A stretch of 64,000 nucleotides of DNA, taken from positions 75,011 through 139,010 of the forward strand of contig JAGQRH010000003.1 of assembly GCA_020425605.1 (NCBI GenBank), in the 5' to 3' direction. The translations under genes and the position numbers were made by a program. Position 1 is the first letter of the stretch, and each line of letters opens with the position of its first letter. The notes under the pieces are model-generated. The model was not told where the DNA came from, searched no databases, and saw nothing but the letters and a program-made list of their open reading frames with translations. This DNA is from Planctomycetota bacterium. GTDB lineage: Bacteria; Planctomycetota; UBA8742; UBA2392. Positions 3,138 to 60,400 of this stretch are shown here, in pieces.

Positions 3138-3292
3138 GGCGGGTGAACCTCGGGGAGTGCTTTGCGAAGCTGATGGGAGGATACGCCATGACCTCACCAC
3201 TCCATAGGGTATTGCGAATTCGCCATTGCCGATCAGCGGCCACATACTGACTTTGTCGCGTTTCCGCATAGGGCGCCGGATGGCAAATGGAC

Positions 3293-3322: not shown

Positions 3323-3345
3323 TGAGAGCTGTTTGTGTGGTGGGG

Positions 3346-9846: not shown

Positions 9847-9898
9847 TGCAGCTGTCAGGCAGCACGATCTGAAACCTGTAACCTGACCCCAGGCTGCC

Positions 9899-12481: not shown

Positions 12482-12491
12482 AGTGGGCTCC

Positions 12492-12578
12492 GTTCCCGTT
12501 CGGAAAGTCTACATGTCAACTTCCCGAATGGGAACGCTACTGGAGTTCGAGTGTTCTCAATTTGATCCTGAACGGGAT
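12492..12578. promoter_or_regulatory. candidate operator sites in the divergent regulator/surface-protein promoter
   Basis: GTTCCCGTTCGG (12492-12503) is the inverted copy (11/12) of CCGAATGGGAAC (12524-12535). A third related copy CTGAACGGGAT lies at 12568-12578. GGAGAG RBS precedes ATG 12617. Confidence 0.3.
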
Positions 12579-12616
12579 ATGGTTTCGCGTCGCTCTTACC
12601 TGCACGGAGAGAAACC

Positions 12617-21106: not shown

Positions 21107-21202
21107 CGATGCCCCTCGCAGCCGGGATCGCCCGCACTTGTTTGCCTATCGCCTTGTAAACAGGTAGAAAGCTTGGAACTAACCACTCATTGGGAGAGTA
21201 GC

Positions 21203-42374: not shown

Positions 42375-42647
42375 GGTGTTCTCCTTCGGCCTGTACGATA
42401 GCCTTCAGGACCGTTAGTGAAAACGAGGCAGCGCGATATTCGCTTCCCGGCCATGGCCAACATGAACAACATTAACCACGAAGGACCGCCAAGGGCCGCT
42501 AAGCTCAAGGCAGTTCTTCTTCGCGGTCCTTAGTGGTCCTTAGCGGTTCCAAGCAGTCGGGACTCAACGGCGAAGGGGGCGGCGTAAGCCACCCCCCTGC
42601 CGCATGAGTCGCCCCCGGGCGGGGTAGACGACCCGTACGAATCCTGT

Positions 42648-43970
42648 TCAGGTTTGAACGCTGCAGCCGCCGCCCGTCGATCCGCCGACGCTGCAACCAC
42701 CTGAGGCCGCGCCGCCGACGCTGCAGCCGCCGCTGGTTCCGGCGCCCGTTGTCGGGGCGACCTTGTTCCAGGGAAGGCGCATCAGGATCAGTGCCATGCC
42801 GCAGAAGCCGGTGGTGCCGGCGACAGTAAGGCCTGCGCCCACGAATGCGCTTAGGCCGTAGAACCAAGGACTCACGAATGTTCCCAGGATCACACCGGCC
42901 AGCACCAGCAGGCCCGCGCCCATCTGCACCTGGCGCATGATGCTGATGACGCGGCGGCCCTTGTTGTATGGCAGCCCCGACTTGATCCAGCCGGCCATGC
43001 CGCCGTCCATGATCTTGTAGTTGCTGAACTTGCGGCGCTCGAGAATCTGGGCCGCCATCAGCCCGCGGTTGCCCGCGGCGCAATTCAGCACGATGGTCCC
43101 CTTGGCGGTGTTCAGCTCGGTCAGGCGCTTTTCGAGCTCTTCAAGCGGGATGTTCCATGAGCCTTCGATGCTGTCGCCGCTGAATTCCAGCGGGCTGCGA
43201 ACGTCCACGATCTGGAGCGCATGCGGGTCGTCCTTCAGCATCTCGTGCACCGTCTTGCAGTCGATGTGCGCGCTGCTGTCGCTGCCCTTGCGGTTGAAGG
43301 TCAGAATCTCGGCCATGCCCTGCGGCAGCGGGCCGCGGACGGACAGCTTCTCGACGACGGCCTCGCGACCGCCGGCGGTGTAGATCAGGTTGGTCTCGCG
43401 CTCTTTGCCGAGAGTGCTGTGCGAGCGGCCCTGGTAGTCATGGCCCGGCCAGACGATGGTGTCGTCGCCGAACCCGGCAAACTTGGTGAAGCTGTCGAAC
43501 AACTCGCCCGCGTCGCCGCCCATGAAGTCGGTTCGCCCGGAGCCGCCGATCAGCATGGTATCGCCCGTGAAGAGGTTGCCGTCGACGTGTACGGTGAGGC
43601 TGTCCGGGGTGTGGCCGGGGCTGGCGATGATGCGCAGCTCGGTTTCGCCGAGCATGTAGACCTCGCCGTCATGGAGCGGCCTGTCAGCGGGCTTGACCAG
43701 CGTGCCTTCGATCATGCCGTACTTGGCGCCGGTGCGGCTGGCCAGCTCGGCTGCGCCGCTAAGGTGATCGGCGTGGGTGTGAGTGTCGATCACGAGATCG
43801 AGCTTGAGGCCTTCCTTATGGAGGGCGCTCAGGAACTCATCCACCAGGTCGTGGCGCGGGTCGATGATGGCGGCCTTGCCGGATGCCCGGTCACCGATGA
43901 TGTAGCCAAGGCAGCCTTCGCCTTCCTTGGTGACCTGCTTGATGAATGGCTTGGTTGCGATTGCGGTCAT
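42648..43970 (-). CDS. persulfide dioxygenase-like MBL-fold + rhodanese + DUF2892/YgaP-like membrane hairpin, (GGCSV)x3 tail
   Basis: IDTHTHADHLSG, SPGHTPDS and rhodanese loop ..IVLNCAAGNRG... Membrane module MRQVQMGAGLLVLAGVILGTFVSPWFYGLSAFVGAGLTVAGTTGFCGMALILMRLPWN. Tail SGGCSVGGAASGGCSVGGSTGGGCSVQT. AGGAGA RBS. Confidence 0.85.
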   Translation of the reverse strand: MTAIATKPFIKQVTKEGEGCLGYIIGDRASGKAAIIDPRHDLVDEFLSALHKEGLKLDLVIDTHTHADHLSGAAELASRTGAKYGMIEGTLVKPADRPLHDGEVYMLGETELRIIASPGHTPDSLTVHVDGNLFTGDTMLIGGSGRTDFMGGDAGELFDSFTKFAGFGDDTIVWPGHDYQGRSHSTLGKERETNLIYTAGGREAVVEKLSVRGPLPQGMAEILTFNRKGSDSSAHIDCKTVHEMLKDDPHALQIVDVRSPLEFSGDSIEGSWNIPLEELEKRLTELNTAKGTIVLNCAAGNRGLMAAQILERRKFSNYKIMDGGMAGWIKSGLPYNKGRRVISIMRQVQMGAGLLVLAGVILGTFVSPWFYGLSAFVGAGLTVAGTTGFCGMALILMRLPWNKVAPTTGAGTSGGCSVGGAASGGCSVGGSTGGGCSVQT

Positions 43971-44023
43971 GTCGTTTCTCCTTTGTTACCGTGTTCCGGT
44001 GTTGCCATTGGAACATCTATGGA

Positions 44024-44057
44024 ATTGACTATATTCCCATGTGGTTATATAGTCAAT
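44024..44057. promoter_or_regulatory. perfect palindrome containing face-to-face sigma70-like promoters (and a probable ArsR operator)
   Basis: ATTGACTATAT-N12-ATATAGTCAAT. Plus strand reads TTGACT (44025-30) -17 nt- TATAGT (44048-53). Minus strand reads TTGACT (44056-51) -17 nt- TATAGT (44033-28). Located in the 120-bp AT-rich spacer between the divergent PDO-rhodanese and arsR-sulP genes. Confidence 0.55.
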
Positions 44058-44090
44058 ACAGGAACGCACGAAACATGAAGGAGTTTCGTC

Positions 44091-44429
44091 ATGACCCGCA
44101 AGAAAGATCACAAGCCGATGGGTGCCGCAGCGCTGGGACTGGTGGCCGCGCGCTTCAAGCTGCTCGGTGAGCCTGCACGGCTGGCCCTGCTGAATGCGCT
44201 GATGCTCAAAGAGCTGAACGTCAATGAGCTGGTCGAGACCACCGGACTCAGCCAGGCCAACGTCAGCAAGCACCTGGGACAGCTGGCCGACGCCGGATAC
44301 GTGCAGCGCCGCAAAGAGGGGCTCTACACGGTCTACTCGATCGCGGACGACAGCGTGTTCCAGCTATGCGACCTGATGTGCGGCGCCATCGCCAAGAAAC
44401 TGGGACAAGACCTGAAAGCCATAGCCTAG
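44091..44429 (+). CDS. ArsR/SmtB-family transcriptional regulator (possible sulfide/persulfide sensor)
   Basis: FKLLGEPARLALLNALMLKELNVNELVETTGLSQANVSKHLGQLADAGYVQRRKEGLYTVYSI is the canonical ArsR wHTH. C-terminal CDLMC Cys pair. AAGGAG RBS. Confidence 0.88.
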   Translation: MTRKKDHKPMGAAALGLVAARFKLLGEPARLALLNALMLKELNVNELVETTGLSQANVSKHLGQLADAGYVQRRKEGLYTVYSIADDSVFQLCDLMCGAIAKKLGQDLKAIA

Positions 44430-44438
44430 GGGCAAGCC

Positions 44439-46178
44439 ATGAACATCCGCCGCCTGCTGCCGTTCACCGACTGGCTGTTTCACTACCAGCGCCGGAACCT
44501 GTCCGGCGACCTGCTGGCCGGCGTGATCGTCACGATCATGCTGATCCCCCAGAGCCTCGCCTACGCCATGCTGGCGGGCCTGCCCCCCGAGTACGGGCTG
44601 TACGCGAGCATCGCCCCGCTGCTGATCTACGGCCTGCTGGGCACCAGCCGCACACTGAGCGTCGGGCCGGTCGCGGTCGTCTCGCTCCTGACGGCCACGG
44701 CGCTGACGCCGCTGGCGACGCCCGGCAGCGCGGATTACATCAAGCTCGCGATCCTGCTCGCGGCGATGACGGGCGTGATCCAGCTGGTGCTCGGGCTCGT
44801 GCGCGGCGGCTTCATTTCGAACCTATTGTCGCACCCGGTGGTGGCGGGCTTCATCACGGGCTCAAGCATTCTCATTGTCATCAGCCAGCTCAAGCACGTC
44901 CTCGGCGTGAAAGCCGCGGGCGGGCATCTTCCTTATGAATCCGTGATCGGGCTGGTGCAGGCCGCGCCGGGCACCAACTTCGTTACGTTTGCAATGGGCG
45001 TCGCGGCGATCGCGCTGCTGCTGTTCTTCCGCAAGCCGTTCCGGAAGCTGCTGGAGCGCGTCGGACTGTCCAAGGGCGCGGCGCAGATGCTGGCCCGCAC
45101 GGGACCGGCGTTGCTGGTGCTGGCGGGCATAGGCTCAATCTACTTCTTCGGCCTGGACTCGGCCTATGGCGTGCGCGTGGTCGGTGACTTCCCGACCGGG
45201 CTGCCCGACTTCTCCCTGCCCACGCTTGACCTGCCGGTGATCGGCAGCCTGCTGCCGGCCGCGCTGGCGATCGTGCTGGCGGGTTATGTCGAAAGCGTCA
45301 GTGTCGGCCGCTCATTGGGTGCCAGGCGCCGCCAGACTATCGACCCGAACCAGGAACTCGTCGCGCTTGGTGCGGCCAACATCGCGGCCGGCCTGACCAG
45401 CGGCTTTCCGGTCACGGGTGGCTTCAGCCGCTCGGTCGTCAACTTTGATGCAGGCGCGAACACCGGTCTCGCCAGCATCATCACCGCCGTGCTGATCGGC
45501 GTGGTGACGCTGGCGCTGGCGCCGCTGTTCACCAGCCTGCCGCAGGTTGTGCTGGCCGCGACGGTGATCGTGGCCGTGGCCGGCCTGATCAATTTCAGGC
45601 AACTCTGGCACCTCTGGAAGTACAGCAAGGCCGACGGCGCGATGATGGCATTGACGATCGTCGGCGTGCTCGGCCTCGGCGTGGAGATTGGAATCGGCCT
45701 CGGGGTCGGCATGTCGCTGCTGCTGTACATGGCGCGCGCCAGCCGACCGCACATGGCCGTGGTAGGCCGGCTCGGGCAATCGGAGCACTTCCGCAACGTC
45801 AAGCGGCACGCGGTGATCACCTACCCGGGCCTGCTGCTGCTGCGAGTGGACGAGAACCTGTTCTTTGCCAACACCCGCAACGTCGAAGACCGGATCATGA
45901 AGCAGGTCAGCGAACAGCCGGATCTGCGCGACATTGTGCTGATCTTCAGCGCGGTCAACTCGGTCGACTCCAGCGCGCTGGAATCACTTGAGGGGCTGAT
46001 CGAGCGGTTGCGCAGCCTTGGCATCACGCTGCACCTGGCCGAGGTGAAGGGCCCGGTGATGGACCGCTTCGATGCAATCGGCTTCACGAAACACCTGGAG
46101 CCCGGCCAGGTCTTCATCAGCACGCACCGCGCCGTGGAAGCCCTTCGGCCGCCTACAGCACCTGCACGCGCCGCCTAG
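44439..46178 (+). CDS. SulP-family anion transporter with C-terminal STAS domain
   Basis: LSGDLLAGVIVTIMLIPQSLAYAMLAGLPPEYGLYASI is the SulP signature. STAS: ..VLIFSAVNSVDSSALESLEGLIERLRSLGITLHLAEVKGPVMD... Starts 9 nt after arsR. Confidence 0.92.
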   Translation: MNIRRLLPFTDWLFHYQRRNLSGDLLAGVIVTIMLIPQSLAYAMLAGLPPEYGLYASIAPLLIYGLLGTSRTLSVGPVAVVSLLTATALTPLATPGSADYIKLAILLAAMTGVIQLVLGLVRGGFISNLLSHPVVAGFITGSSILIVISQLKHVLGVKAAGGHLPYESVIGLVQAAPGTNFVTFAMGVAAIALLLFFRKPFRKLLERVGLSKGAAQMLARTGPALLVLAGIGSIYFFGLDSAYGVRVVGDFPTGLPDFSLPTLDLPVIGSLLPAALAIVLAGYVESVSVGRSLGARRRQTIDPNQELVALGAANIAAGLTSGFPVTGGFSRSVVNFDAGANTGLASIITAVLIGVVTLALAPLFTSLPQVVLAATVIVAVAGLINFRQLWHLWKYSKADGAMMALTIVGVLGLGVEIGIGLGVGMSLLLYMARASRPHMAVVGRLGQSEHFRNVKRHAVITYPGLLLLRVDENLFFANTRNVEDRIMKQVSEQPDLRDIVLIFSAVNSVDSSALESLEGLIERLRSLGITLHLAEVKGPVMDRFDAIGFTKHLEPGQVFISTHRAVEALRPPTAPARAA

Positions 46179-46732
46179 ACGGAGCCTGCGTCGTGGGACT
46201 CGGCGGCCTTGTGGATGCCGCGCCACAGCTCGTCGGGATTGAGCCCCTTGGCCGCGATGATCAGGTCAGCGATCTCGCGCACGGCGCCGCGACCGCCGGG
46301 CTTGGCAGTCACGTAGCGCGCTGACTCGCGGGCGAACTCGGTCGCGTCGGCCGGCGCGCATGGGATGCCCGCAGCCTCGAACGCCTCGGAGTCGTTCACG
46401 TCGTCGCCCACGTAGGCCGTTTGTTCTTCGGTAACTCCAAACTGCTGCATCACTGCGCGCAGGGCGTCGCCCTTGCGTTTCATGCCGGGCTTGTAGGCGC
46501 TAAGCATCAGGCGCTTGACTCGCCCGCCTACGACCGGGCTGTCTTCACTTGTGATGACGGCCACGCGCACGTCCGCCGCCTCAAGCAAACGCAGGCCCAT
46601 GCCGTCGCGGATGAAGAAGGACTTGGCAAGTTCGCCGTCGCGCCCGTAGAGGACCGTGCCGTCGGTCAGCACGCCGTCCACGTCGCAGGCGAGCAGTCTT
46701 ACGTTCTTCCATTCTTCTTCGGTGACGCTCAT
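46175..46732 (-). CDS. kdsC: KDO 8-phosphate phosphatase (KdsC-type HAD)
   Basis: VRLLACDVDGVLTDGTVLY..GELAKSFFIRDGMGLRLL...YVGDDVNDSEAF is KdsC-family HAD. ATGA overlap with tatC. Confidence 0.85.
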   Translation of the reverse strand: MSVTEEEWKNVRLLACDVDGVLTDGTVLYGRDGELAKSFFIRDGMGLRLLEAADVRVAVITSEDSPVVGGRVKRLMLSAYKPGMKRKGDALRAVMQQFGVTEEQTAYVGDDVNDSEAFEAAGIPCAPADATEFARESARYVTAKPGGRGAVREIADLIIAAKGLNPDELWRGIHKAAESHDAGSV

Positions 46733-48516
46733 TCGCTCTTCCCGTTGCCGTTGCGATCGTGCAGTTCGTGCTCGATCCGGTTCATCCAGGGGCGCAGCTC
46801 GCGCTCAAAGTACTGCTCAAGGCGCTGGCTGATTCGGTCTTCAATGTACCGGGCCAGGTCTTCGTTCACGTTTTCGTCCCAGGGGCGATCGGGATACTCG
46901 GACTCATCCGTCTCGGGTCTTGCGTCGGAAGCCTCAACAGCGGTCGCAGCATCGCTTGACTTCACGGCTGACGCGGCGGGCTGTGACTCCTTGGTCGCCG
47001 TCTCAGCGGACTCCTGACTCGCGACTTCCGGCTCCCGACTGGTGCTCGTCTCCTGCTCGAACTCTGGTTTGGGTTTGGCCTTGCGTGGCTTGAGCTTGAC
47101 CTCGACGGGCGGCTTGTCGTCGTCCTTGTAGTCGTCGTCAAAAATCGTCTCGAGGTCTTTTCCGCTTTCGCGGAAGCCGGCCACAAGCTCTCGCGCGAAC
47201 TCGCGTGCGCCGCCCTTGCTGAATTCGGTCAGCTTCTTCTCAAGGTCAAATGCGAGACCACCGGCCAGCGCCTCCGGGTCCACTTTTTCGCCCCGTTTGG
47301 CGGCTTCCAGCGCGGCCTTCTCGGCGCGTTTCAGGACCGAGCGTTTCCATAGACGGCCGATCCAGACACCACCCTCCACCAGGAAGAACACCGGCGCGCC
47401 CGCCAGCACCATGTCGATCGGGCTGCCGGAAGGCGAAACGATCGCGCCGATGATCACCGAGATCAGGATGGTGTAGCGCCGCTTGCTCTTGAAGAACTCG
47501 GGCGAGAGCAGACCGAAGCGGATCACCGGCGCCACCAGCAGCGGGATCTGGAAAATGAACCCGAGCCCGAAGGTCATCGCGAACACCAGCCCCAGAAACT
47601 GGGCCAGCGAATAGTTCGTATCCACGTCAAAGTCCTGCACGTTGAAGCCCAGCAGGAACGGGATGCTGATCGGCAGCAGCACATAACGGCCGAACGCAGC
47701 CCCCGCCACGAACAGCAGGAAGATGGAAGGAATCGCGAAGCGGAAGAACTGCCGTTCATGGCGGTACAGGCCCGGTGCAATGAACAGATAGGCCTGCAGC
47801 ATGACCCACGGGTAAGCAAAGATCAGCGCGGCGTACAGACTGACGCGCATGGTGGTGCTGAACGTTTCCAGCGTGGCGATCACGGTAAAACGGATCTGTT
47901 CACGAAAGCTCTGCAACTCGTAGCCGGACAGTTGCTGCACCGCGATGCGGCCATCCTGTTCGCGCTCGGTGCGTACGAGCACGCCGCCCTTCTTGGCGAT
48001 CCAGGTGCGGGTGATGCCGTCCTTGCCGGTCACGACGCGCTTGAAGCAGACAAACTCGCCGGCCGGCACGGTGATGGTCTCTTCGCTTTCGAGGATCGCT
48101 TCGGGGTCGGTCTCGGCCTCGATGCCCTTGAATGAATGGGTGAAGGTGTGCGCCTCAAGCACCTTGTCGTCGGCGTCCAGCAGCGATCGGCGAACCTCGG
48201 ACGAGTTCTCTTTCACCTCGAGGACTTCGTAGCGCAGGAATCTCGCATCCCCGCCCGAGCCTGTCTGCAGTGTCCAGGTGCTTCCGGCGGCCCGGTAGGG
48301 CATGTCCGCGGCGACTTCGATGCTGCTGTATTCGGTGTCGGCGACGTTGTGGTCGACGACCGCGATGTCCTTCACGTAGCGGACGATGTCCCCGGCGAAC
48401 CATGCGAACACCACCGTGAACGCAATGAACACGCCCAGCAGCGACCAGACCAGCCGCTTGCGCAGCTCATCAAGGTGGCTGGAGAACGAGGTTGGCTCTT
48501 CGTCAGTGTCAGGCAT
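46729..48516 (-). CDS. tatC: twin-arginine translocase subunit TatC with a large periplasmic-loop insertion and a long charged C-terminal extension
   Basis: Track ORF to 48546 (TTG); ATG at 48516 (MPDTDEEPTSFSSHLDELRKRLVWSLLGVFIAF). The TatC core resumes at ..TLETFSTTMRVSLYAALIFAYPWVMLQAYLFIAPGLYRHERQFF... About 170 aa lie between TM1 and that point, and about 210 aa of Lys/Glu/Asp-rich sequence follow TM6. Confidence 0.85.
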   Translation of the reverse strand: MPDTDEEPTSFSSHLDELRKRLVWSLLGVFIAFTVVFAWFAGDIVRYVKDIAVVDHNVADTEYSSIEVAADMPYRAAGSTWTLQTGSGGDARFLRYEVLEVKENSSEVRRSLLDADDKVLEAHTFTHSFKGIEAETDPEAILESEETITVPAGEFVCFKRVVTGKDGITRTWIAKKGGVLVRTEREQDGRIAVQQLSGYELQSFREQIRFTVIATLETFSTTMRVSLYAALIFAYPWVMLQAYLFIAPGLYRHERQFFRFAIPSIFLLFVAGAAFGRYVLLPISIPFLLGFNVQDFDVDTNYSLAQFLGLVFAMTFGLGFIFQIPLLVAPVIRFGLLSPEFFKSKRRYTILISVIIGAIVSPSGSPIDMVLAGAPVFFLVEGGVWIGRLWKRSVLKRAEKAALEAAKRGEKVDPEALAGGLAFDLEKKLTEFSKGGAREFARELVAGFRESGKDLETIFDDDYKDDDKPPVEVKLKPRKAKPKPEFEQETSTSREPEVASQESAETATKESQPAASAVKSSDAATAVEASDARPETDESEYPDRPWDENVNEDLARYIEDRISQRLEQYFERELRPWMNRIEHELHDRNGNGKSE

Positions 48517-48567
48517 CCCGGGAAGCGTAACCCCGCCGGGACCCAAAGGAAACGCTGAGTTTGCGCG

Positions 48568-49146
48568 CTACTCTTCTTCGGCCGGCGTGCCGGTGGCATC
48601 CGGGTCCTTGGCGAACGCGTCGCCCGGCAACCCGGCTGGTTTGTCTTCGTCTTTCTCGTTCACTTTCGTGGACTCATCCTGCTCAGGCGCGCGGTCTGTT
48701 TCCTCGAGGTCGTCGTCATCTTCGTCGTCGGCCAGCTCTTCAGGCTTGCCGACTTCCTCAAGGCGCGCGGTGTCCTTGCGGTGCTGGTGCTCGCGCTCAA
48801 GGATCACACGGGCGGTGTCCTTGCCGTCGCCGGTGAGGCTGACGTTATAGATCTGGTTCGGGCTGGTACGCCCCGCCATGATTGCGCCGCTGCCGTACTT
48901 GACACTGACAAGACCCAACTCTTCAAGGATGTGAATCTCCTGCGTGAACACGGCCTCGAAGCCCCAGTTGAATCGATTGCGGGGGCGGTTTTCCTCGAGC
49001 TGCTTCAGCAGCTCCATGCGGGCCTGGCGATAGCTGGCCTGGTTGGTGCCGAGTTCTTCAAGGCGGCGGTGCAGATACTTCAACAGCTCACGGCCGATCT
49101 CCGTGATCGTCTTGTCTTCATCTTCCTTGTGCTTCTCATTCGGCAA
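48568..49146 (-). CDS. hypothetical protein with acidic C-terminal tail
   Basis: Track ORF 48568..49218 overlaps the upstream gene. The only plausible coupled start is TTG 49146, which is uncertain. ..EIHILEELGLVSVKYGS.. then DDEDDDDLEETDRAPEQDES... No family recognised. Confidence 0.5.
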   Translation of the reverse strand: MPNEKHKEDEDKTITEIGRELLKYLHRRLEELGTNQASYRQARMELLKQLEENRPRNRFNWGFEAVFTQEIHILEELGLVSVKYGSGAIMAGRTSPNQIYNVSLTGDGKDTARVILEREHQHRKDTARLEEVGKPEELADDEDDDDLEETDRAPEQDESTKVNEKDEDKPAGLPGDAFAKDPDATGTPAEEE

Positions 49147-49969
49147 TGTTTCGTTCCACGCCGTCGAGGAAATCCTTGGCACGCTTCGCGGTTTCAACCG
49201 CGTTGCGGCTTGCCTCACTCAGTTCAACGCATGCAGGCCCTGCATAACCAGTTTCGCGCAGCACCTTGAAGGTGTGTGCGAAATCCACGCTACCTTCTCC
49301 GAAAAAGAGGTGGCGATGGCGACCGGGGAGCATGTCGTCGAGCTGGAGATTATAGAGGACGTCTTGGTAGGACGACAGATACTCCCACTCAGGCTTTGAC
49401 TCGACGCATTCAAGGTGACCGATGTCTAACGTGAGACCCGGCCGGAAACCAAGCAGCTCGGCCAGCCGGTCGTAGTCGGCCATGGACTCGATCAGCATCC
49501 CCGGCTCAGGCTCAAGCGCCGCGCGGATGCCATGCATGCTGCACAACTCTTCAAATTTGCCCACGTGATAGGCGAGCCGCTTGTAAAGCTCGGCGTCGTC
49601 GCCGGTCCAGCCTTCCGGGCGTGCGCCGGACCAGTAGGACAGTGCCGGCGCCCCCAGGTCGCGCGCGATCTCGGCGGCACGATACAGAAAATGCACACGT
49701 GAATCGCAGTCGTCATCGATCAACGTTGGGCGATGCTTGCGGCGAGCGTCCAGCAGATAGCGCGAGCCGGTTTCGATCACGCACTCAAGCTCCAGCCGGC
49801 CGAGTTGCTTTGCGACTTCGTTGACTTCGAGCGCGCTGCAGGTGAACGGGTTCAGGTGATGCACATCCAGCGTCAGCGCCACGCACTCATAGCCCAGCTC
49901 GGCGATGATCTCGATAGCGTCGGGCAGAGTGTGGAAGGCGAAGCCGTTGGTGTTGTAGCCCAGCTTCAA
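49136..49969 (-). CDS. sugar phosphate isomerase/epimerase (xylose-isomerase-like TIM barrel)
   Basis: MKLGYNTNGFAFHTLPDAIEIIAELGYECVAL... is the typical family N-terminus. TTG start immediately after the upstream TGA (TGATTG). Confidence 0.8.
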   Translation of the reverse strand: MKLGYNTNGFAFHTLPDAIEIIAELGYECVALTLDVHHLNPFTCSALEVNEVAKQLGRLELECVIETGSRYLLDARRKHRPTLIDDDCDSRVHFLYRAAEIARDLGAPALSYWSGARPEGWTGDDAELYKRLAYHVGKFEELCSMHGIRAALEPEPGMLIESMADYDRLAELLGFRPGLTLDIGHLECVESKPEWEYLSSYQDVLYNLQLDDMLPGRHRHLFFGEGSVDFAHTFKVLRETGYAGPACVELSEASRNAVETAKRAKDFLDGVERNIAE

Positions 49970-53991: not shown

Positions 53992-54122
53992 CACCCAGTC
54001 ATCGTAACGGCCTGCGGGGCCTTGTGAAGTAGCGCGCCCGCGAAATACGCTGCTCCGGCTCACAAAGGGTTGGCCATGGGCCGGACGGAAGCAATAATCA
54101 CTACGATCTATAGAGGAAGCCC

Positions 54123-56501
54123 ATGCAGAATTTCGTACCTGCCTTCATCGAAGAGCAGCGCAAGGCCGGCGTCGGCCAAGGCAAGTTCTCCGCCACCGTC
54201 CTGTTCGTTGACGTGAGCGGCTTCACATCCCTGACCGAAATGGCATTCAAGCTGGGCGACGCGGGCGCTGAATTGATGAGCCGCGAGCTGACCCGCATTT
54301 TCGACCCCATGGTCAATGCCGTACACGACCGCGGTGGTTTCATTGCGAATTTCATGGGTGACGCTTTCACGGCCGTCTTCCCCGAGGAAGAAGGCTCAAC
54401 GGCGCGCGCAACCGAGGCGGCCAATGAGATCGTCAAGTGGTTCGATGAGCACGGAACCAGCAAGACCCGCCACGGCGAGCTGGCATTCGGCGTGAAGATC
54501 GGCGCTGACCACGGCGAGATTGAATGGGGCATCCCCTATGACAGCGAGCTGAACGCACGCGATTGGTACTTCCGCGGCAAGGCCGTCGACGGCGCTGCAT
54601 CCGCAGAACACGGCGCCGAGCGAGGCACGATCAAGCTGAGCGAAGCCCTCGAGCAGCGAGCCGCCAAGAAAGAAAAGCCGGGAAAAGCCAAAGTCACGCA
54701 GGCCGTGCACGACCGCGACGCGCTGCTGGAGTTCTTCCACAGCCAGGTGATCGACGCCGGCGAGCGCGCCGAACTGCGCCACGTGGTGAGCCTGTTCCTT
54801 CGCTTCGATGGCGTGAAGGACCACGCGACGATCGAGAAGGTCTTCCATACGCTGTTGGTCGCTGCCAAGCGGCACGGCGGCACGATCAACAAGATTGACT
54901 TCGGCGACAAGGGCTTCACGGCGCTGGTCTTTTTCGGCGCGCCTGTTGCGACCGAGAACGCAGAGGCGGCCGCAGTCGGCTTTGCGCAGTCGCTGCCGAC
55001 ACTCGGCCTCGGCGACATCAAGGGCGTCAAGGTCTCGGCCGGTATCGACGCGGGCCTGGTGTACTCCGGCCTGCTGGGCGGCGAGCGCCGCAATGAGTGG
55101 ACCTGCATCGGAGACGCCGTCAATACCAGCGCCCGCCTGATGACCGCCGCCGAGCCGGGGCAGACGCTGACCAGCTCACGCGTCAGCAAGGCCTCGGAGA
55201 AGCGCTGGGAATTCCAGGACAAGGGCACGCGAATCCTGAAGGGCAAGGCCAAGGAAGAGCAGGTCTTCCAGCCCAGCGGCATGCGCGGGCGCGTGCGCGG
55301 CTTTGTCTACCGCAACCCGATGCTCGGGCGCGACAAAGAGCTGGCCGAGCTGATTTCATTCATCGACCCGATCTACGGCAAGGAGCCCAAGTTCGCCGGC
55401 GTGATGCGCCTGCTGGGCGAGCCGGGGCTGGGCAAGACGCGTCTCGTGGCGGCCGTACGGGCCAAGCTGGAAGAAAAAGGCGAGCCGTTCCACTGGATCA
55501 CCATGCCGTGCGACGGCGTGCACCGCAGCGGCTGGAACGCGGTCAGCACCTGGTTGCGCAGCTGGTTCGGCATCGCGGAGAGCGCAAGCCAGGAAGACAA
55601 GCGCAAGGCGATCGAAAGCCACTACGCGCAGTTCGAGAACAACGAGAAAGTGCCCGAGGGCACGCGCAGCGAGCTCAAGCGCACCCTCAGCTTCGCGGCC
55701 GACCTGGTGGACTGCCACTGGGATGAGTCGCCGTTTGCCAAGCTGGACGACCCGAAGCTGCGCCACGAGAACCGTATCATCGCGGTGAAAGAACTGCTGC
55801 GCGCACTGGCGCACACGGCGCCGACCGTTCTCGAGGTCGAGGACACGCACTGGATTGACGCATCCACGGCTGCGTGGCTGACGGCCATGACGCGCAACAT
55901 CGCGAACCTCCCGCTGGCGATTCTTGCCACGTCGCGCTTTACAGACGACGGCAGCAAGCCGGAGCTGCAGATCGCGCAGGACACTGAGTTGAAGGACTTC
56001 GAGCTGAAGCCGATCGAAGGCGACGAGTTCACCCAGGCCATGGCCAAGGCTCTGCTCGGCGGCAATTCCGAGTTGGACGCCGAGGCCTGCAAGCTCATCA
56101 GCGGCAAGGCCAAGGGCAATCCGTTCTTCACCGAGCAGCTGATCCTGCACCTGCACGAGACCGGCGAGCTGGAAGCAGTAAAGGCGCCCGAAACCGCCGA
56201 CGAAACCACCAAGCGCCGCTCGCGCCTGCGCATGAAGAGCACCGACACCGCACGCCTGCCGGGCAGCCTGAGTTCGCTCGTGACGGCACGCATTGACCGC
56301 CTGAGCCCCGAAGTACGCGAAACGGTCAAGCACGCCAGCATCCTCGGCGTACGCTTTCTTTCGAGGGTTCTCGGCGAATTACTCAAGCGTTCCGGCAAGG
56401 TCAGCCGCAGCCTCGAGGAGTTGCTGATCGAGAGTGAGAAAGAAGGCGTGCTGATCCCGGCGGAGCGCGCCGAAGAAAACGAAGGCGACGCAGCGACGTA
56501 G
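54123..56501 (+). CDS. tandem class III adenylate/guanylate cyclase domains fused to a P-loop (AAA/STAND-like) ATPase
   Basis: ATVLFVDVSGFTSLTE.. and a second cyclase-homology domain (..VVSLFLRFDGV....GDAVNTSARL). P-loop LLGEPGLGKTRLV. 792 aa. Confidence 0.85.
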   Translation: MQNFVPAFIEEQRKAGVGQGKFSATVLFVDVSGFTSLTEMAFKLGDAGAELMSRELTRIFDPMVNAVHDRGGFIANFMGDAFTAVFPEEEGSTARATEAANEIVKWFDEHGTSKTRHGELAFGVKIGADHGEIEWGIPYDSELNARDWYFRGKAVDGAASAEHGAERGTIKLSEALEQRAAKKEKPGKAKVTQAVHDRDALLEFFHSQVIDAGERAELRHVVSLFLRFDGVKDHATIEKVFHTLLVAAKRHGGTINKIDFGDKGFTALVFFGAPVATENAEAAAVGFAQSLPTLGLGDIKGVKVSAGIDAGLVYSGLLGGERRNEWTCIGDAVNTSARLMTAAEPGQTLTSSRVSKASEKRWEFQDKGTRILKGKAKEEQVFQPSGMRGRVRGFVYRNPMLGRDKELAELISFIDPIYGKEPKFAGVMRLLGEPGLGKTRLVAAVRAKLEEKGEPFHWITMPCDGVHRSGWNAVSTWLRSWFGIAESASQEDKRKAIESHYAQFENNEKVPEGTRSELKRTLSFAADLVDCHWDESPFAKLDDPKLRHENRIIAVKELLRALAHTAPTVLEVEDTHWIDASTAAWLTAMTRNIANLPLAILATSRFTDDGSKPELQIAQDTELKDFELKPIEGDEFTQAMAKALLGGNSELDAEACKLISGKAKGNPFFTEQLILHLHETGELEAVKAPETADETTKRRSRLRMKSTDTARLPGSLSSLVTARIDRLSPEVRETVKHASILGVRFLSRVLGELLKRSGKVSRSLEELLIESEKEGVLIPAERAEENEGDAAT

Positions 56502-56524: not shown

Positions 56525-56548
56525 GGCACAGGCGTGCGCGCCTGTGCC
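56525..56548 (+). terminator. hairpin after the cyclase gene
   Basis: 10-bp perfect stem GGCACAGGCG / CGCCTGTGCC with a TGCG loop, 24 nt after the stop. No strong T-run. Confidence 0.5.
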
Positions 56549-56569
56549 ATTGCATGCGAGTAGACGCAG

Positions 56570-57466
56570 TTGTCCGAAGACAGCCCACTCAAGCAAGTGC
56601 TACAGGTACCGCTTCTCGGCGTCGGGTTGGGTATTGATATCTTCGACGTACAGCCGGACTTTCGCACGCTGATCCGCGACCACCGCGACGGCTTTGATTT
56701 TCTTGAGGTCTACTCACGTGGCGACTGGGAACATACTGACGATCCGTTTGCACAGATCCCCGCCGACGTGCCGCGCACCTATCACCACGAAGGCCTAGAC
56801 CCGGTCGGGCCGAGCCTCTGCCCAGACGGCCCCATCGAAGGCTGCATCAAGAACCAGAAATTGCTGAGCCCACCCTGGACCGTCGAAGAACTGGCTGTAC
56901 GGCACATCGACGGTCGCTACACCGACTTTTTCTTTCCGGCAATTCTGAACGCCGAGTGCGTGAAGGCTACTGTCGCCAACCTGTGCGAGCTGGCAAAGCG
57001 CATCCCCGGCCCGTTGCTGCCGGAGAATGCGCCCTACGAATTCGTCGTCGGCGACATGCACCTGTTCGACTTCATGAACGAAGTTGCCCACGGCGCTGAC
57101 TGCGGGCTGGTACTCGACCTTGGCCATGTCTGGTCCTACCAGCTCTGCGTCGGCAAGGGCGACCAGCCCGACGACCAGCTCGACAAGCTTGACCTGTCAA
57201 GAATCATCGAGGTGCACCTTGCGGGTGCGCGCATAGAGGATTACGAAGGCGGGCGTATCTACCGTGACCTGCACGGTGCCGGCCCGATCCCCGAGGAGTC
57301 GCTGTTCCTGCTGCGCCAACTTATCGGCAAGCTGCCGAACCTGAAGGCCATTACGATCGAAGTCGAAGATGCCTCCGAGGCCGTTGCCGTGGCACAGGCG
57401 CGGCAGGTGCGCGAAATCGTCCAGCAGATCCGCCCGACATGGCTGGAGGGCATGCATGTCGCTTGA
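56570..57466 (+). CDS. DUF692 / MNIO-like (multinuclear non-heme iron oxidase, MbnB/TglH family) TIM-barrel protein
   Basis: The order of motifs fits DUF692: LGVGLG.., ..FDFLEV.., ..YHHEGL.. (HG), ..VEELAV.. (SEH-like), ..LLPENAPYEF.. (EN..Y), ..GLVLDLGHVW.. (D..H), ..IIEVHLAGA.. (E-H-AG). No ATG; start is TTG 56570 or GTG 56597. Confidence 0.65.
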   Translation: MSEDSPLKQVLQVPLLGVGLGIDIFDVQPDFRTLIRDHRDGFDFLEVYSRGDWEHTDDPFAQIPADVPRTYHHEGLDPVGPSLCPDGPIEGCIKNQKLLSPPWTVEELAVRHIDGRYTDFFFPAILNAECVKATVANLCELAKRIPGPLLPENAPYEFVVGDMHLFDFMNEVAHGADCGLVLDLGHVWSYQLCVGKGDQPDDQLDKLDLSRIIEVHLAGARIEDYEGGRIYRDLHGAGPIPEESLFLLRQLIGKLPNLKAITIEVEDASEAVAVAQARQVREIVQQIRPTWLEGMHVA

Positions 57467-58187
57467 GGCACAGTATCGAGCGCTCTACCAGCTGATGTAC
57501 AAACGCGGCACAAGAGACGCGTTTGAGCAAGGCAAGTTTGAACGCTTCGAGGGCACAAGCGACGACGAGGCAGCCGAGATCAGCAAGGTTGCCGGGCTGC
57601 GCCAGAACATCGTCGTGCAGCTTCACGCGAACGACATCGGCAACAACTGGTACGCGCCGCGCTTTCCGGCCACGTGGATGGCACTGCAAGTCGCACTCGG
57701 CGTTGACCAGGCGGAGTTGACCATGCGCCTGACCAATGCCGATGCGTTTGAATTGCGCGTAAATGACGACTACGACGGCCGGGCACTGGCGGCCTATGTG
57801 CAACAACTCGCCGAGTTCAAGCCCCCTCGTGGCCACAAGACCGAGCCACCGCTTGCCGGCGCGCCCTGGCTGCCTGAGCTGTTGCGCTACGAGCGCATGA
57901 TCGCCGGGCACTGGCCCGATGACGCCAGCCCGCGCGTGGAGAGATTTGACTGGGACGTCGGCGGCGTCCACGACGCGCTGCTCGAGAAAGAACTGTTCCC
58001 GGTCGATGAAAGACCCGTGCCGCTGCACTTGCTGCTGCATCGCGATGCGGCCGGCGTCACCGAAGTCGCCCTCAACGCCGAGCAGGCCAGCACGATGAAA
58101 AAGCTGCTGCGCGGCGAGGATACCAAAGGCGAGCCGCCAAAAATCGTCGCCAAGTGCCGGCGGGTCTTGAACCAGCTGAAAGACTAG
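57456..58187 (+). CDS. hypothetical protein translationally coupled to the DUF692 gene (candidate MbnC/TglI/DUF2063-type partner)
   Basis: In frame with track ORF 57369..58187. ATG at 57456 overlaps the upstream stop (57466) by 11 nt: MSLEAQYRALYQLMYKRGTRDAFEQG... The partner role is inferred from position only. Confidence 0.6.
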   Translation: MSLEAQYRALYQLMYKRGTRDAFEQGKFERFEGTSDDEAAEISKVAGLRQNIVVQLHANDIGNNWYAPRFPATWMALQVALGVDQAELTMRLTNADAFELRVNDDYDGRALAAYVQQLAEFKPPRGHKTEPPLAGAPWLPELLRYERMIAGHWPDDASPRVERFDWDVGGVHDALLEKELFPVDERPVPLHLLLHRDAAGVTEVALNAEQASTMKKLLRGEDTKGEPPKIVAKCRRVLNQLKD

Positions 58188-58196: not shown

Positions 58197-59228
58197 CTAC
58201 AGCGTCGGCTTCTCGACCTGCCACAAACTGTCCGTGAACCAGCCGTTGTTGTCGTAGTACTGGTCCAGGATGCGGAAGCCGGTATTGGCCGCCAGCCCGT
58301 CGATGTCACTCTGCAGGTACTTGTATGAGTACTCGGTGTGCAGAGGCTCCCACTCCTGGAAGTCGAAGCTGCTGCGCAATTCCTTGATCGTTACCGTCTG
58401 GCGCTTCAGGCTGACGATGTAGCTCTCCATTGCGCCGCTGAACACGTCGTAAGTCGCGAAGTGCCTGTAGGCCGCAAGGTCGAAGTCGCCCCCGAGCTCC
58501 CGATTCACCCGTTTCAGCAGGTTCTTGTTGAATGCGGCCGTGACACCTTGCCTGTCATTGTAGGCCGCCAGCAGCAGCTCAATGTCTTTCTTGAGGTCGA
58601 AGCCGATCAGCACCTGGTCGCCGTCGTTGAGCGCTTCCCACAACTGGCGCAGGAACACTCGCGCCTGCACCTTGTTGAAATTGCCGATGTTGCTGCCGAG
58701 GAAGAGCACCAGGTTGCGGCGGTCATTGCTCTGGCTCAGCCAGTGAAGCCCGTCGAAGTACTCGGCGACGATGCCGGCCACTTTCACATCACTGAACTTC
58801 GCGCGCGTGTTCGTTACCAGGCTGGACATGCTGGCTTCGCTGATGTCGATCGGCACGTACCGCACGTCCGTCACCTGCTTGCGGGCCGCCTCAAGCATGA
58901 TGTTGGTCTTGCGTCCGTCGCCGGCGCCGAGGTCCACAATGTCGAGCTTTGCTGTGCCCGCCCGTTTCAGGATCTCTTCCGTGTGGTTCCGGAGAATCTC
59001 GGCCTCGGTCCGCGTCGGGTAGTACTCATCCAGCTCACAGATCCGCGAAAACAGCCGGCTCCCTTCGTCGTCATAGATCCAGCGCGAAGACAGGCGTTTC
59101 GGCGTCTCACTCAGCCCGTTCAGTACGTCCAGCGCAAACGCGCGCAGCCCATGCGCGGCCGAGAGATCGGCCGGACTCAACACTCGATACCCTGCATCCT
59201 GCGCGGCGGCTTTGCTTTTGGTTGTCAT
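58197..59228 (-). CDS. egtD: L-histidine N-alpha-methyltransferase (ergothioneine biosynthesis)
   Basis: Track ORF extends to 59612 over egtB. ATG at 59228 (MTTKSKAAAQDAGY..). ..LSSRWIYDDEGSRLFSRICELDEYYPTRTEAEIL.., DLGAGDGRKT and FLGSNIGNF are EgtD motifs. ATGA overlap with egtB. Confidence 0.88.
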   Translation of the reverse strand: MTTKSKAAAQDAGYRVLSPADLSAAHGLRAFALDVLNGLSETPKRLSSRWIYDDEGSRLFSRICELDEYYPTRTEAEILRNHTEEILKRAGTAKLDIVDLGAGDGRKTNIMLEAARKQVTDVRYVPIDISEASMSSLVTNTRAKFSDVKVAGIVAEYFDGLHWLSQSNDRRNLVLFLGSNIGNFNKVQARVFLRQLWEALNDGDQVLIGFDLKKDIELLLAAYNDRQGVTAAFNKNLLKRVNRELGGDFDLAAYRHFATYDVFSGAMESYIVSLKRQTVTIKELRSSFDFQEWEPLHTEYSYKYLQSDIDGLAANTGFRILDQYYDNNGWFTDSLWQVEKPTL

Positions 59229-60400
59229 GCGTCCTCTGCCAGGCGGATGCCCGTAAATTGCCAGCGTCGGTCCGGGTGCCAGAAGTTTCGATAGGTCGGC
59301 CGAATGTGACCGGCCGGCGTGGCAACGCTGCCACCGCGCAGCACCATCTGATTGACCATGAATTTCCCGTTGTACTCGCCGATCGCGCCTTCCGGCGGAC
59401 GATAGCCGGGGTAGGGCAGATAGGCGCTGCTGGTCCACTCCCACAACTGGCCCGTGCCCTGCAGCTTGCCGATCGCGGCCTCCCACTCGAACTCGGTCGG
59501 CAGGCGCTTGCCCGCCCAGCGCGCGAACGCGTCGGCCTCGTAGTAGCTGACGTGGCACACCGGCGCGTCCGGCTGCAACCCGGCCAAGCCGTGCAGCGTG
59601 AACGCGTGCCACTCGCCATCCTGTTGCAGCCAGTACTGCGGGGCCCTCCAGTGCTGCTGCTGCACTATATCCCAGCCGTCGCTCAGCCAGAACTCGGGGC
59701 GCGTGTAGCCACCCGATTGCATGAATTCCATGTACTGCGCATTGCTGACCTGGCCGTTGGCCAGTCGGTAGGGACGCAGCAACTGCTGGTGCCGGGGAAG
59801 CTCGTTGTCGAAGGCGAAGTCCTCACCGCTGTGGCCGATCTGGACGACACCGCCTTCAAACCCGGTCCATCCCTCGGCTGCCTTGCGCTTCATGGATTGC
59901 TGACCCGATACATACGCGGGGTACAACGGGGCTTGGAACAGGATGAACTTGATATCCGTCAGCAGCAGCTCCTGGTGCTGCTGCTCGTGATTCAGGCCGA
60001 TTTCCAGCACCGGCAGCAGCTTCTCGAGCGTTGCGTCGTCGCAGCTCTCAATCAGTCGGCGCATCCGGGAGTCAACTTCTTCCCGATACTCCCAGATCTC
60101 CGCCACCGTCGGCCGCGTCAGGAATCCTCGCTTGGGCCGCTCGGTCCGCTCGCCGATCAGGTTGTAGTAGCTGTTAAAAAGGAATGCGTACTGCGGGTGC
60201 ACCGGGCGATAGTCCTTGCCGAATTCGCCCAGCAGGAATTGCTCAAAGAACCACGTCACGTGCCCGATGTGCCAGCGCGGCGGACTGACGTCGGCCATCG
60301 GCTGGACGACGTAATCCTCGGTCTGCAGCGGCGCACAGATTTCCCGGGTGTGGGCGCGCACGGACTCATAGCGCGCCAGAATTTCCGCCCTGTCGGGCAT
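59225..60400 (-). CDS. egtB: ergothioneine biosynthesis sulfoxide synthase EgtB (DinB-like + FGE-sulfatase-like domains), short form
   Basis: PPRWHIGHVTWFFE and GLNHEQQHQELLLTD (His triad of the DinB-type domain). C-terminal ..LWEWTSSAYLPYPGY..VLRGGS...RNFWHPDRRWQFTGIRLA. Confidence 0.88.
   Translation of the reverse strand: MPDRAEILARYESVRAHTREICAPLQTEDYVVQPMADVSPPRWHIGHVTWFFEQFLLGEFGKDYRPVHPQYAFLFNSYYNLIGERTERPKRGFLTRPTVAEIWEYREEVDSRMRRLIESCDDATLEKLLPVLEIGLNHEQQHQELLLTDIKFILFQAPLYPAYVSGQQSMKRKAAEGWTGFEGGVVQIGHSGEDFAFDNELPRHQQLLRPYRLANGQVSNAQYMEFMQSGGYTRPEFWLSDGWDIVQQQHWRAPQYWLQQDGEWHAFTLHGLAGLQPDAPVCHVSYYEADAFARWAGKRLPTEFEWEAAIGKLQGTGQLWEWTSSAYLPYPGYRPPEGAIGEYNGKFMVNQMVLRGGSVATPAGHIRPTYRNFWHPDRRWQFTGIRLAEDA

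Follow-up and report, generated by a model that had tools for sequence, protein, structure and literature searches.

We think that two adjoining genes in the 64,000-nucleotide stretch of planctomycete DNA analysed here (the window) encode a two-subunit oxidase of the TglHI type, which can fairly be called an uncharacterised branch of the known multinuclear non-heme iron oxidase (MNIO; DUF692) family, and that this enzyme would act on a substrate supplied in trans while being co-transcribed with a sensor-less cyclase-STAND protein. Taken as a whole, this explanation seems to us about evenly poised between being right and being wrong. The first gene (56570..57466, forward strand, 298 aa, TTG start) specifies the catalytic MNIO subunit and the second (57456..58187, forward strand, 243 aa, ATG start) its TglI-like partner. 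In the mechanism that we favour, the MNIO subunit would employ O2 at a site of two or three iron atoms, the helical N-terminal domain of the partner would clamp the enzyme, and the C-terminal domain of the partner, which resembles a RiPP recognition element (RRE), would dock the tail of a peptide or protein, a residue of which would then be oxidised. The iron site, with Glu for the canonical second His and His for the canonical Asn, would favour C–H oxidation of a residue other than Cys, and co-transcription with the cyclase-STAND NTPase would tie the expression or output of the pair to cyclic-nucleotide signalling.

Profile and fold matches agree on the family of the catalytic subunit. Pfam PF05114 (MbnB_TglH_ChrH) matches residues 36–273 at 65.5 bits (E 5.9e-18), against a gathering score of 25 bits, and is present in all of the MNIO homologues (92/92). 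Among sequence-profile matches of the clade, 3BWW comes top (4e-14), accompanied by TglH (4e-13). When the AF2 model (pLDDT 94) is compared with the PDB by Foldseek, the top nine matches are all MNIOs (TglH, 3BWW and MbnBs; E 1e-14 to 4e-10) and endonuclease IV and the sugar isomerases appear at 1e-8 or worse, so that among the xylose-isomerase-like TIM barrels the model lies closest to the solved MNIOs. The first-pass annotation, which had read a DUF692/MNIO enzyme from an ordered series of motifs and had proposed an HMM search, is borne out on both counts: YHHEG, VEEL, PENAPY, LDLGHVW and EVHLAG are all found, in the order claimed, and the profile score is well above threshold. It was also right that the gene lacks an ATG and must begin at TTG 56570 or GTG 56597. 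TTG 56570, the earliest start codon past the in-frame stop, is the likely translation start, because homologues keep an N-terminal xSPFxRV motif that lies 5' of GTG 56597; in addition, the MNIO of the closest relative has a GTG start at the position equivalent to TTG 56570. None of the curated NCBIfam MNIO equivalogs scores above its cut-off (score/cut-off: ApyH 64.3/400, BufB 53.2/310, HvfB 32.8/360, ChrH 23/600; MbnB is not listed), and it is therefore fair to speak of an uncharacterised subfamily, in keeping with the earlier suggestion of a possible new one.

The active site is where this branch departs from the better known members. Alignment with TglH, combined with the published ligand list (PMC10880893), predicts nine metal ligands (H72, E107, E152, D183, H186, H216, D233, H235 and E264), every one of which is invariant among 21 clade members. 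Seven are canonical: H72, E152, D183, H216, D233, H235 and E264 correspond to TglH H71, E151, D184, H216, D229, H231 and E258. The other two are swapped, with Glu107 for TglH H107 and His186 for TglH N187; as residues, both can still bind metal. A comparable arrangement is reported for PbsC, an MNIO that hydroxylates Phe at the ortho position and does not modify Cys, with ligands His97/Asp133/Glu178, Asp213/His247/Glu290 and His216/Asp260/His262 (PMC12257519). The window enzyme agrees with PbsC in ligand pattern and spacing, where the PbsC numbers are residues of the AlphaFold3 model in that paper and a homologue, P0076, serves as proxy; in the alignment with P0076, WINEDLG lies against WTVEELA and LDTGHLISYQ against LDLGHVWSYQ. 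Overall, the window enzyme and P0076 are only 27% identical, and certain fused, uncharacterised MNIOs with the canonical His in place (P0070 and P0081) reach values just as high, at 27–28%. It is the PbsC-like ligand pattern that makes C–H oxidation of a non-Cys residue more likely than a Cys chemistry directed by thiolate, as in MbnB, TglH and BufB. The Cys-containing substrate anticipated in the first-pass annotation is not warranted, because the ligand set differs from the canonical Cys-modifying one, carrying His-to-carboxylate and Asn-to-His swaps as in the Phe hydroxylase PbsC.

The second gene had been described as a 243-aa reading frame of no recognised family that overlaps the MNIO gene by 11 nt and might be the expected partner, and each part of this description stands. 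It starts at ATG 57456, which gives an overlap of 11 nt with the end of the MNIO gene, family searches yield no Pfam or NCBIfam match at E up to 0.1 (the DUF2063 signature is absent), and a sequence search of the PDB returns nothing significant. The AF2 model (pLDDT 90.6) has an N-terminal helical domain followed by an RRE-like C-terminal domain of three strands (160–164, 190–197 and 200–206) and three helices. Foldseek places TglI first (8hci_A and 8hi7_A; E 2e-4, probability 1.0, TM 0.58–0.61), in an alignment that covers the full length of TglI, and next, as third structural match, the DUF2063 protein NGO1945 (3dee, probability 0.97). The MNIO and its partner find their best structural matches in the two subunits of a single solved complex. 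Partners lacking the DUF2063 signature have been classed as 'PME-type 2' in a survey of the MNIO landscape, which recognised them by HHpred matches to 3DEE and 8HI7 (PMC12452194), and here, too, a gene directly 3' of the MNIO combines the absence of DUF2063 with a TglI/NGO1945-like structure. Because the partner model matches TglI and then NGO1945, we infer that the pair forms a TglHI-like holoenzyme, a putative heterodimer with a PME-type 2 partner. Homologues of the partner (n=29) all come from Planctomycetota metagenomes. The partner evolves about twice as fast as the MNIO and the cyclase protein (42–47% identity, compared with 71–79%), a pace in keeping with co-evolution with a docking sequence that itself varies.

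We compared the window with roughly 40 related loci, every one from an uncultured member of the Planctomycetota, to which a scan of metagenome contigs added only a few short ones. The neighbourhood analysis, which had been recommended at the outset, gives a simple answer: the constant unit is the MNIO with its partner, with no small ORF conserved alongside. The partner follows the MNIO in nearly all loci, and the two genes remain adjacent, co-oriented and mostly overlapping down to 37% MNIO identity, and also in the next sister group. One genome carries the partner gene about 60 kb from the MNIO, which means that the genes can be unlinked; the gene 5' of this relocated partner (locus L035) was considered as a second MNIO and is not one. 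A candidate fourth conserved gene downstream was likewise dismissed, since the 120-aa proteins of one group (L004) and the 125-aa proteins of another (L031) are unrelated and have no counterpart in the window. On its 3' side the window pair is met by a convergent egtD (Methyltransf_33, E 3.6e-104) that ends 9 nt from the partner stop and is followed by egtB. The convergent egtD at 9 nt is as the first-pass annotation had it, and egtD/egtB lie directly 3' in eight further distinct loci, including L016, which has no cyclase gene; most relatives have the MNIO and partner but no longer this adjacency, which is probably inherited synteny. Being convergent, egtD belongs to a separate transcript. Further window neighbours include an M50 protease, a sulfatase, TatC and a transporter, among others.

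What is missing from all of these loci is a precursor. Neither the spacers nor the rest of the 64-kb window contain a precursor-like small ORF, no RiPP genes are found in those 64 kb, and no small ORF is conserved across the roughly 40 related loci, which upholds and extends the earlier remark that no precursor was visible. The 5' insert between cyclase and MNIO genes in one locus (L005), examined as a hidden precursor, is a 234-aa lipoprotein-like gene that occurs only there. Nor does a conserved Cys offer itself as a modification site in the neighbouring proteins: the three invariant Cys residues of the cyclase protein all lie inside folded domains, and Cys234 of the partner, near-invariant in the clade, is Ala in sister subclades. 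The substrate gene is most likely to be encoded elsewhere in the genome, and the expectation of a peptide substrate acting in trans draws on family precedent and on the partner fold.

Directly upstream lies a gene (54123..56501, forward strand) for a 792-aa signalling protein in which Pfam recognises two stretches of Guanylate_cyc, that is, two class III cyclase homology domains, and an AAA_16 (STAND-type) NTPase, followed by a terminal winged-helix-like region. The protein ends right past this region and contains neither sensor repeats (TPR, WD40) nor a DNA-binding domain. It had been regarded as a mere neighbour, closed off by a hairpin; gene and hairpin are indeed there, but neither of the other points holds, since in the close clade the cyclase, MNIO and partner genes are conserved together as a unit of three, often overlapping one another. 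Besides the window, 15 distinct loci (16 in all) have an orthologue with 75–93% identity directly 5' of the MNIO, across three flank contexts; in most loci the spacer ranges from overlap to 133 nt, and in several genomes the cyclase stop codon overlaps the MNIO start. The hairpin (56526..56549, forward strand; GGCACAGGCG-TGCG-CGCCTGTGCC) is a perfect, GC-rich 10-bp stem in the 68-nt spacer, found in the sequence and by RNA folding. We do not take it for an intrinsic terminator: a U tract is lacking, it is not called terminator-like, its fold z-score is only -1.85, and relatives with overlapping cyclase and MNIO genes lack the hairpin spacer altogether. The linkage is confined to genomes with at least 71% MNIO identity and could in part be inherited synteny. 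Sister subclades (57–67% MNIO identity) keep the pair with no such large upstream gene, as do L014 and L016. In L010 the cyclase slot holds a different STAND NTPase (30% identity, no cyclase domains), in six loci of a distant subclade it holds an MshEN c-di-GMP-binding/PATAN protein, and one pair of the sister group is adjoined by a GGDEF gene and two cNMP-binding genes. Residues 721–780 of the cyclase protein show 98–100% identity among 16 orthologues against a background of normal variation at synonymous sites, and we rejected constraint at the DNA or RNA level on that account. Similarity to the PycC cyclase is generic and weak, and we have discarded an anti-phage defence system on these grounds. 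Separately, a promoter-like TTGGCC-17-AATAAT (54070..54098, forward strand) lies in the divergent spacer that separates the cyclase gene from an rseP-like M50 protease gene. This pattern match from a consensus scan, in itself no sign of function, would be a possible promoter of the three-gene unit.

Might the cyclase-STAND protein then be the substrate itself? The C-terminal winged-helix region of this protein, which is invariant, or its tail would provide the docking site for the partner, and a residue there would be oxidised by the MNIO, switching the cyclase, in which case a RiPP-type pair would have been recruited for regulation. The order of large protein, MNIO and partner does mimic the usual order of precursor, MNIO and partner (PMC12452194), and action of MNIOs on long proteins has been proposed in the literature. 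The codon overlaps between the first two genes, the near-identity of the last structured 60 residues under normal synonymous drift, the lack of a sensor domain in a STAND protein, and the recurrence in this slot of another STAND NTPase (L010) or another large signalling protein (the distant subclade) all point the same way. The idea is weakened by the sister subclades and the two further loci that keep the pair without such a gene, and by the extreme C-terminus, the last 10 or so residues of which vary in length and sequence with no conserved terminal residue; this speaks against a chemistry at the C-terminus like that of TglH or ApyH, and a TglA/ApyA-like site at the C-terminal residue was rejected for this reason. 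The partner, moreover, evolves fast when its supposed docking region is invariant, and cyclase and PATAN proteins have no sequence similarity; indeed, BLASTP revealed no shared C-terminal 'leader' among the cyclase-STAND, PATAN/MshEN and 160-aa proteins. All in all, we find this rather improbable. Alternatively, the MNIO and partner might provide the missing O2, iron or redox sensor of the STAND cyclase, along the lines of hemerythrin di-iron O2 sensing for nucleotide cyclases, a thought encouraged by a cyclase protein that stops just past the winged-helix region and carries neither a TPR nor a WD40 sensor, by the absence of a visible substrate gene and by the second-messenger genes that recur beside the pair (class III cyclase, MshEN/PATAN in six loci, GGDEF with two cNMP-binding genes). 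Planctomycete genomes are rich in signalling genes, so adjacency to them can arise by chance, many pairs have no signalling neighbour, and all nine ligands and the RRE-like domain are kept as in catalytic holoenzymes; the MNIO literature considered gives catalytic roles only and no sensor role, and a sensor therefore strikes us as decidedly improbable. The broader proposition that a RiPP-type pair has been recruited to second-messenger signalling, whether it modifies the cyclase-STAND protein (or PATAN in sister lineages) or serves as an O2/iron sensor, with cyclic-nucleotide output dependent on the MNIO either way, is in our opinion unlikely.

Other readings leave signalling aside. Gene callers often miss RiPP precursors (PMC12452194) and ORF calling in the related loci was a crude heuristic, so a precursor in cis might have been overlooked as a very short or unusual ORF, or as one overlapping an annotated gene; there is, however, little room for it, given the short or overlapping spacers between cyclase and MNIO in most loci, the overlap of MNIO and partner and the mere 9 nt between partner stop and egtD end, and the subclades differ in their flanks and have no small ORF in common, the sole insert being the lipoprotein gene of L005. 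We regard this as very unlikely. A small-molecule substrate, possibly linked to ergothioneine through the egtD/egtB genes that adjoin the pair in eight further loci (even in the cyclase-less L016), is the least probable of the readings considered here, together with an ordinary sugar-isomerase or endonuclease IV TIM barrel, for which a weak, sub-threshold Pfam match to AP_endonuc_2 could be cited. Fold and HMM evidence favour MNIOs over isomerases and endonuclease IV by at least six orders of magnitude, egtD lies on a separate transcript and its adjacency is gone from most relatives in which the pair persists, the modelled partner has a peptide-docking fold, and every characterised MNIO in the literature considered acts on peptides. 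We thus come back to a TglHI-type oxidase with a substrate in trans as our preferred explanation.

Why should this pair matter? The characterised MNIOs in the literature considered each work on a peptide encoded nearby, and the known chemistry of the family, which is still growing, already takes in Cys, Asp, Asn, Phe and homocitrulline. A pair that spans the lineage, with no substrate in cis and a PbsC-like carboxylate/His site, would be a well-defined target in the search for a trans-encoded RiPP, or for a regulatory protein as substrate, which would be a first for the family, and the sensor-less cyclase-STAND protein as putative operon companion adds to its interest. If the cyclic-nucleotide link were functional, oxidative post-translational chemistry would be joined to second-messenger control.

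Of the known systems, TglHI of the Pseudomonas syringae 3-thiaglutamate/pearlin pathway (8HCI, 8HI7) resembles both proteins most closely in structure (TglH, E 1e-14, TM 0.68; TglI, E 2e-4, TM 0.6). It shares the adjacent enzyme-then-partner gene order, a partner that likewise consists of a helical N-terminal and an RRE-like C-terminal domain, and seven of nine identical iron ligands. Sequence identity is only 13–20%, however, Glu107 and His186 replace TglH His107 and Asn187, and the window has no TglA-like scaffold, PEARL (TglB) or other pearlin tailoring genes; TglH also requires a C-terminal Cys thiolate on Fe1, whereas nothing at the window locus points to a Cys substrate. PbsC/PbsD, from the biosynthesis of biphenomycin-like peptides (PMC12257519), comes closer at the predicted active site, with the same His/carboxylate/Glu, Asp/His/Glu and His/Asp/His ligand pattern and spacing and, via the homologue P0076, the motifs W-x-V/N-E-D/E-L and LDxGHxxSYQ in common, and its partner is also an RRE protein with no DUF2063 signature. 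It differs in overall sequence (about 27% identity to P0076), in its distribution (Actinomycetota and Bacillota, against Planctomycetota here) and in its companions, as the window genes scanned include no FHAFRF/YHxYxY precursor, B12-radical SAM enzyme, arginase or protease of that kind. The BufB/BufC and HvfB-type systems (3BWW; NGO1945, 3DEE) belong to the same superfamily and have the same MNIO-then-partner order, but the NCBIfam scores fall far short (BufB 53 against 310, HvfB 33 against 360), the partner here has no Pfam DUF2063 signature, other residues stand in for the canonical His and Asn, and neither a Cys-rich signal-peptide precursor (DUF2282, Buf_6/12Cys) nor DoxX is present.

For the upstream protein, TIGR03903 (TOMM system kinase/cyclase fusion), which takes its name from a link to TOMM (RiPP) systems, offers a likeness in which a class III cyclase is followed by an AAA_16/STAND NTPase (model positions 321–815). 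Only this cyclase and NTPase part aligns, at 100.9 bits against a cut-off of 705.75, and the window protein has two tandem cyclase domains and lacks a kinase domain, C-terminal repeats and an HTH. Mycobacterial Rv0386-type cyclases are similar cyclase-STAND proteins. Finally, the MNIO survey describes some clusters with no identifiable precursor (PMC12452194); the upstream proteins of these are peptidyl-tRNA hydrolase-like or HExxH proteins, not cyclase-STAND or PATAN, and its text mentions neither the phylum Planctomycetota nor a cyclase-STAND or PATAN protein before an MNIO ('cyclase' appears only in the reference list). In being precursor-less and in having a PME-type 2 partner, the window pair nevertheless fits the description of these 'orphan' MNIO clusters.

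The MNIO (DUF692) gene occupies 56570-57466 on the forward strand and encodes 298 aa from TTG 56570, the first start codon past an in-frame stop, with a GTG following at 56597. We regard the TTG as the likely start, because a conserved N-terminal stretch (xSPFxRV), kept in homologues, is encoded upstream of that GTG; the closest relative has a GTG at the site of the window TTG. The partner gene runs from ATG 57456 to 58187 (+, 243 aa), overlapping the MNIO stop by 11 nt, and 9 nt past its own stop lie the convergent egtD and then egtB (58197-60400, -). The first-pass annotation had described the TTG/GTG starts without an ATG, the motif series (YHHEG, VEEL, PENAPY, LDLGHVW, EVHLAG), the 11-nt overlap and the nearby egtD, and the sequence bears these out.

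Its assignment of the first gene to the DUF692/MNIO enzymes is equally sound. Indeed, Pfam PF05114 (MbnB_TglH_ChrH) reaches 65.5 bits (gathering score 25), with the generic xylose-isomerase TIM family sub-threshold, and a profile of 21 clade members matches the solved DUF692 protein 3BWW at 4e-14 and TglH at 4e-13. The nine best PDB neighbours of the AlphaFold2 model (pLDDT 94) are entries for TglH, 3BWW and, in four cases, MbnB (E 1e-14 to 4e-10), and since endonuclease IV and the sugar isomerases rank behind these MNIOs (E 1e-8 and worse), an ordinary isomerase is no longer a contender. Scores against the NCBIfam equivalogs are far from their cut-offs (ApyH 64/400, BufB 53/310, HvfB 33/360, ChrH 23/600). 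Some 7 kb upstream, next to a sulfatase gene, the window encodes another xylose-isomerase-like TIM barrel (49136-49969, -; AP_endonuc_2, 97.8 bits), which bears no relation to the MNIO.

Sequence searches of Pfam, NCBIfam and the PDB give no match for the partner, whose 29 homologues all derive from Planctomycetota metagenomes. The partner model (pLDDT 90.6) joins a helical N-terminal domain to a C-terminal part built from three strands and three helices. Foldseek with this model ranks TglI first and second (E 2e-4, probability 1.0, TM 0.58-0.61) and NGO1945 (DUF2063) third (probability 0.97), with no other credible match. At the level of predicted structure, this upholds the earlier suggestion that the family-less downstream protein is the expected partner. 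The proteins that the window pair matches best in structure, TglH and TglI, belong together in a single solved complex, the TglHI holoenzyme. 'PME-type 2' partners are structurally DUF2063-like and missed by signature (PMC12452194), a class that the modelled window partner fits.

What might such an enzyme do? By HMM alignment to TglH and its ligand list (PMC10880893), the MNIO is predicted to retain the TglH-type ligands H72, E152, D183, H216, D233, H235 and E264, with Glu107 and His186 aligned where TglH, 3BWW and BufB-like proteins have His and Asn, respectively. All nine positions are invariant across the clade, its most distant members included; in the sister group closest to it (P0063-P0075, about 27% identity), the residues equivalent to Glu107 and His186 are Asp and His. 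A matching ligand pattern and spacing is reported for PbsC, an MNIO that ortho-hydroxylates Phe (His97/Asp133/Glu178, Asp213/His247/Glu290, His216/Asp260/His262; PMC12257519). P0076, a PbsC homologue by blastx of the partial PbsC DNA in that paper's supplement (E 2e-19), aligns its WINEDLG with the window WTVEELA and its LDTGHLISYQ with LDLGHVWSYQ. Fe1 of the Cys-modifying MNIOs is reported or predicted to take the thiolate of the substrate as a ligand (PMC10880893); the variant iron site here would make C-H oxidation of a non-Cys residue the more likely chemistry.

What stays constant across about 40 distinct related loci is the MNIO gene with the partner gene after it, mostly overlapping, down to 37% MNIO identity and in the sister group too. 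All named records among these loci are uncultured Planctomycetota, the closest being MAG HK-STAS-PLAN-35 (93-94% identity). The two genes can work unlinked, since contig JAHBYA010000007.1 (L018, L035) keeps the cyclase gene and MNIO together with the partner about 60 kb off, immediately behind ddl and a gene that resembles ftsQ (weak POTRA). One subclade (L031, L034) has, ahead of the MNIO, a conserved protein of 160 aa with no known family (7430-7918 in L031) and, behind the pair, a conserved and likewise unknown protein of 125 aa (10123-10500 in L031); L034 has equivalents. The partner in this subclade is 402 aa long, and its long tail is rich in Lys, Ala and Pro.

The cyclase-STAND gene (54123-56501, +), which encodes two cyclase homology domains and an AAA_16 NTPase without sensor repeats, is the co-directional gene immediately 5' of the MNIO in 16 distinct loci including the window (MNIO identity at least 71%), with spacers from a 1-4 nt overlap up to 133 nt. 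It is kept in three different flank contexts, which have an M50 protease plus egtD, M50 plus other genes, or neither of the two. The slot holds a different STAND NTPase (30% identity, no cyclase domains) in L010, an unrelated 440-aa protein in L016 and nothing in L014, and subclades at 57-67% MNIO identity have no cyclase-STAND gene upstream. The 68-nt window spacer contains a perfect 10-bp hairpin (56526-56549, +) that has no U tract and was not called by a terminator scan. Read directly, the first cyclase domain has both metal Asp residues and no Asn/Arg pair, and the second retains Asn/Arg, which by established class III motifs suggests a C1/C2-like pseudo-heterodimer. In six loci of a distant subclade (L022, L023, L027, L029, L030, L033; MNIO 37-41% identity), the cyclase slot directly upstream is occupied by another kind of second-messenger protein, of about 600-2,000 aa, whose gene overlaps the MNIO in some. 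All six proteins score above the NCBIfam cut-off for an MshEN-type c-di-GMP-binding domain; Pfam, run on L033 alone, adds DUF4388/PATAN domains there. One sister-group pair adjoins GGDEF and cNMP-binding genes. Second-messenger proteins recur near the pair, a pattern that is no more than suggestive.

We favour a TglHI-like holoenzyme that would oxidise a docked peptide or the tail of a docked protein, with the substrate gene lying elsewhere, and that, in this lineage, would share one operon with the cyclase-STAND protein, 5' of which a pattern scan finds a promoter-like site (54070-54098, +). The weightiest alternative makes the cyclase-STAND protein itself the substrate. Its last structured 60 residues (721-780; window 56283-56462) are 98-100% identical in 16 orthologues, against 75-93% otherwise, and the underlying synonymous sites drift normally, so the constraint acts on the protein and is the strongest within it; the final ten or so residues are variable. 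However, the evolutionary rate of the partner is about double that of the MNIO and cyclase proteins, which suits a subunit co-evolving with a variable docking sequence better than one that binds the invariant cyclase C-terminus. Next in weight, the pair could serve as an O2/iron sensor for the STAND cyclase.

A cis precursor that was missed ranks third. In the roughly 40 loci the pair is accompanied by no conserved small ORF, the spacers are too short and the small genes on either side differ between subclades; the absence of a neighbouring precursor gene, already remarked on, extends to the related loci. Pfam scans of 35 predicted proteins in the 64-kb window find no RiPP-associated family (10 of the 35 match no family). 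Neither an insert in the closest relative (L005, 9285-9989, between cyclase and MNIO), a 234-aa lipoprotein-like gene with lipobox LAVAGC seen there alone, nor a 36-aa ORF with 8 Cys antisense inside egtB (59598-59708, +), almost certainly spurious, qualifies as a precursor. Least weight goes to a small-molecule substrate or an ergothioneine-related role: beyond the window, just 8 distinct loci have egtD/egtB after the pair, and because most loci lack this adjacency and egtD is convergent, it looks like inherited synteny. Of the neighbouring genes scanned, none was recognised as egtA, egtC or egtE.

Elsewhere in the window, two tandem metallo-beta-lactamase/rhodanese fusion genes (41289-46178), one with a YgaP-like membrane segment, adjoin an ArsR-family regulator and a SulP/STAS permease and look like a sulfur or persulfide-handling cluster. 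A TatC homologue (46729-48546, -) is unusually long at 604 aa, its TatC domain spanning only residues 215-384 or so. Several large ORFs (395-899 aa, some with 14-17 Cys) at 570-5973 (-), 9785-15256 and 21173-23959 give no Pfam match at E 1e-5 or better.

By text search of the MNIO survey (PMC12452194) we found no description of this planctomycete clade, of a PbsC-like ligand variant combined with a missing cis substrate, or of operonic coupling between an MNIO and a sensor-less cyclase-STAND protein; broader literature searches, judged by title and abstract, listed no paper on such a system, the few matches for MNIO and Planctomycetes included. The MNIO family and the partner type are themselves already known, and clusters without precursors and partners without signatures are acknowledged in the literature (PMC12452194).
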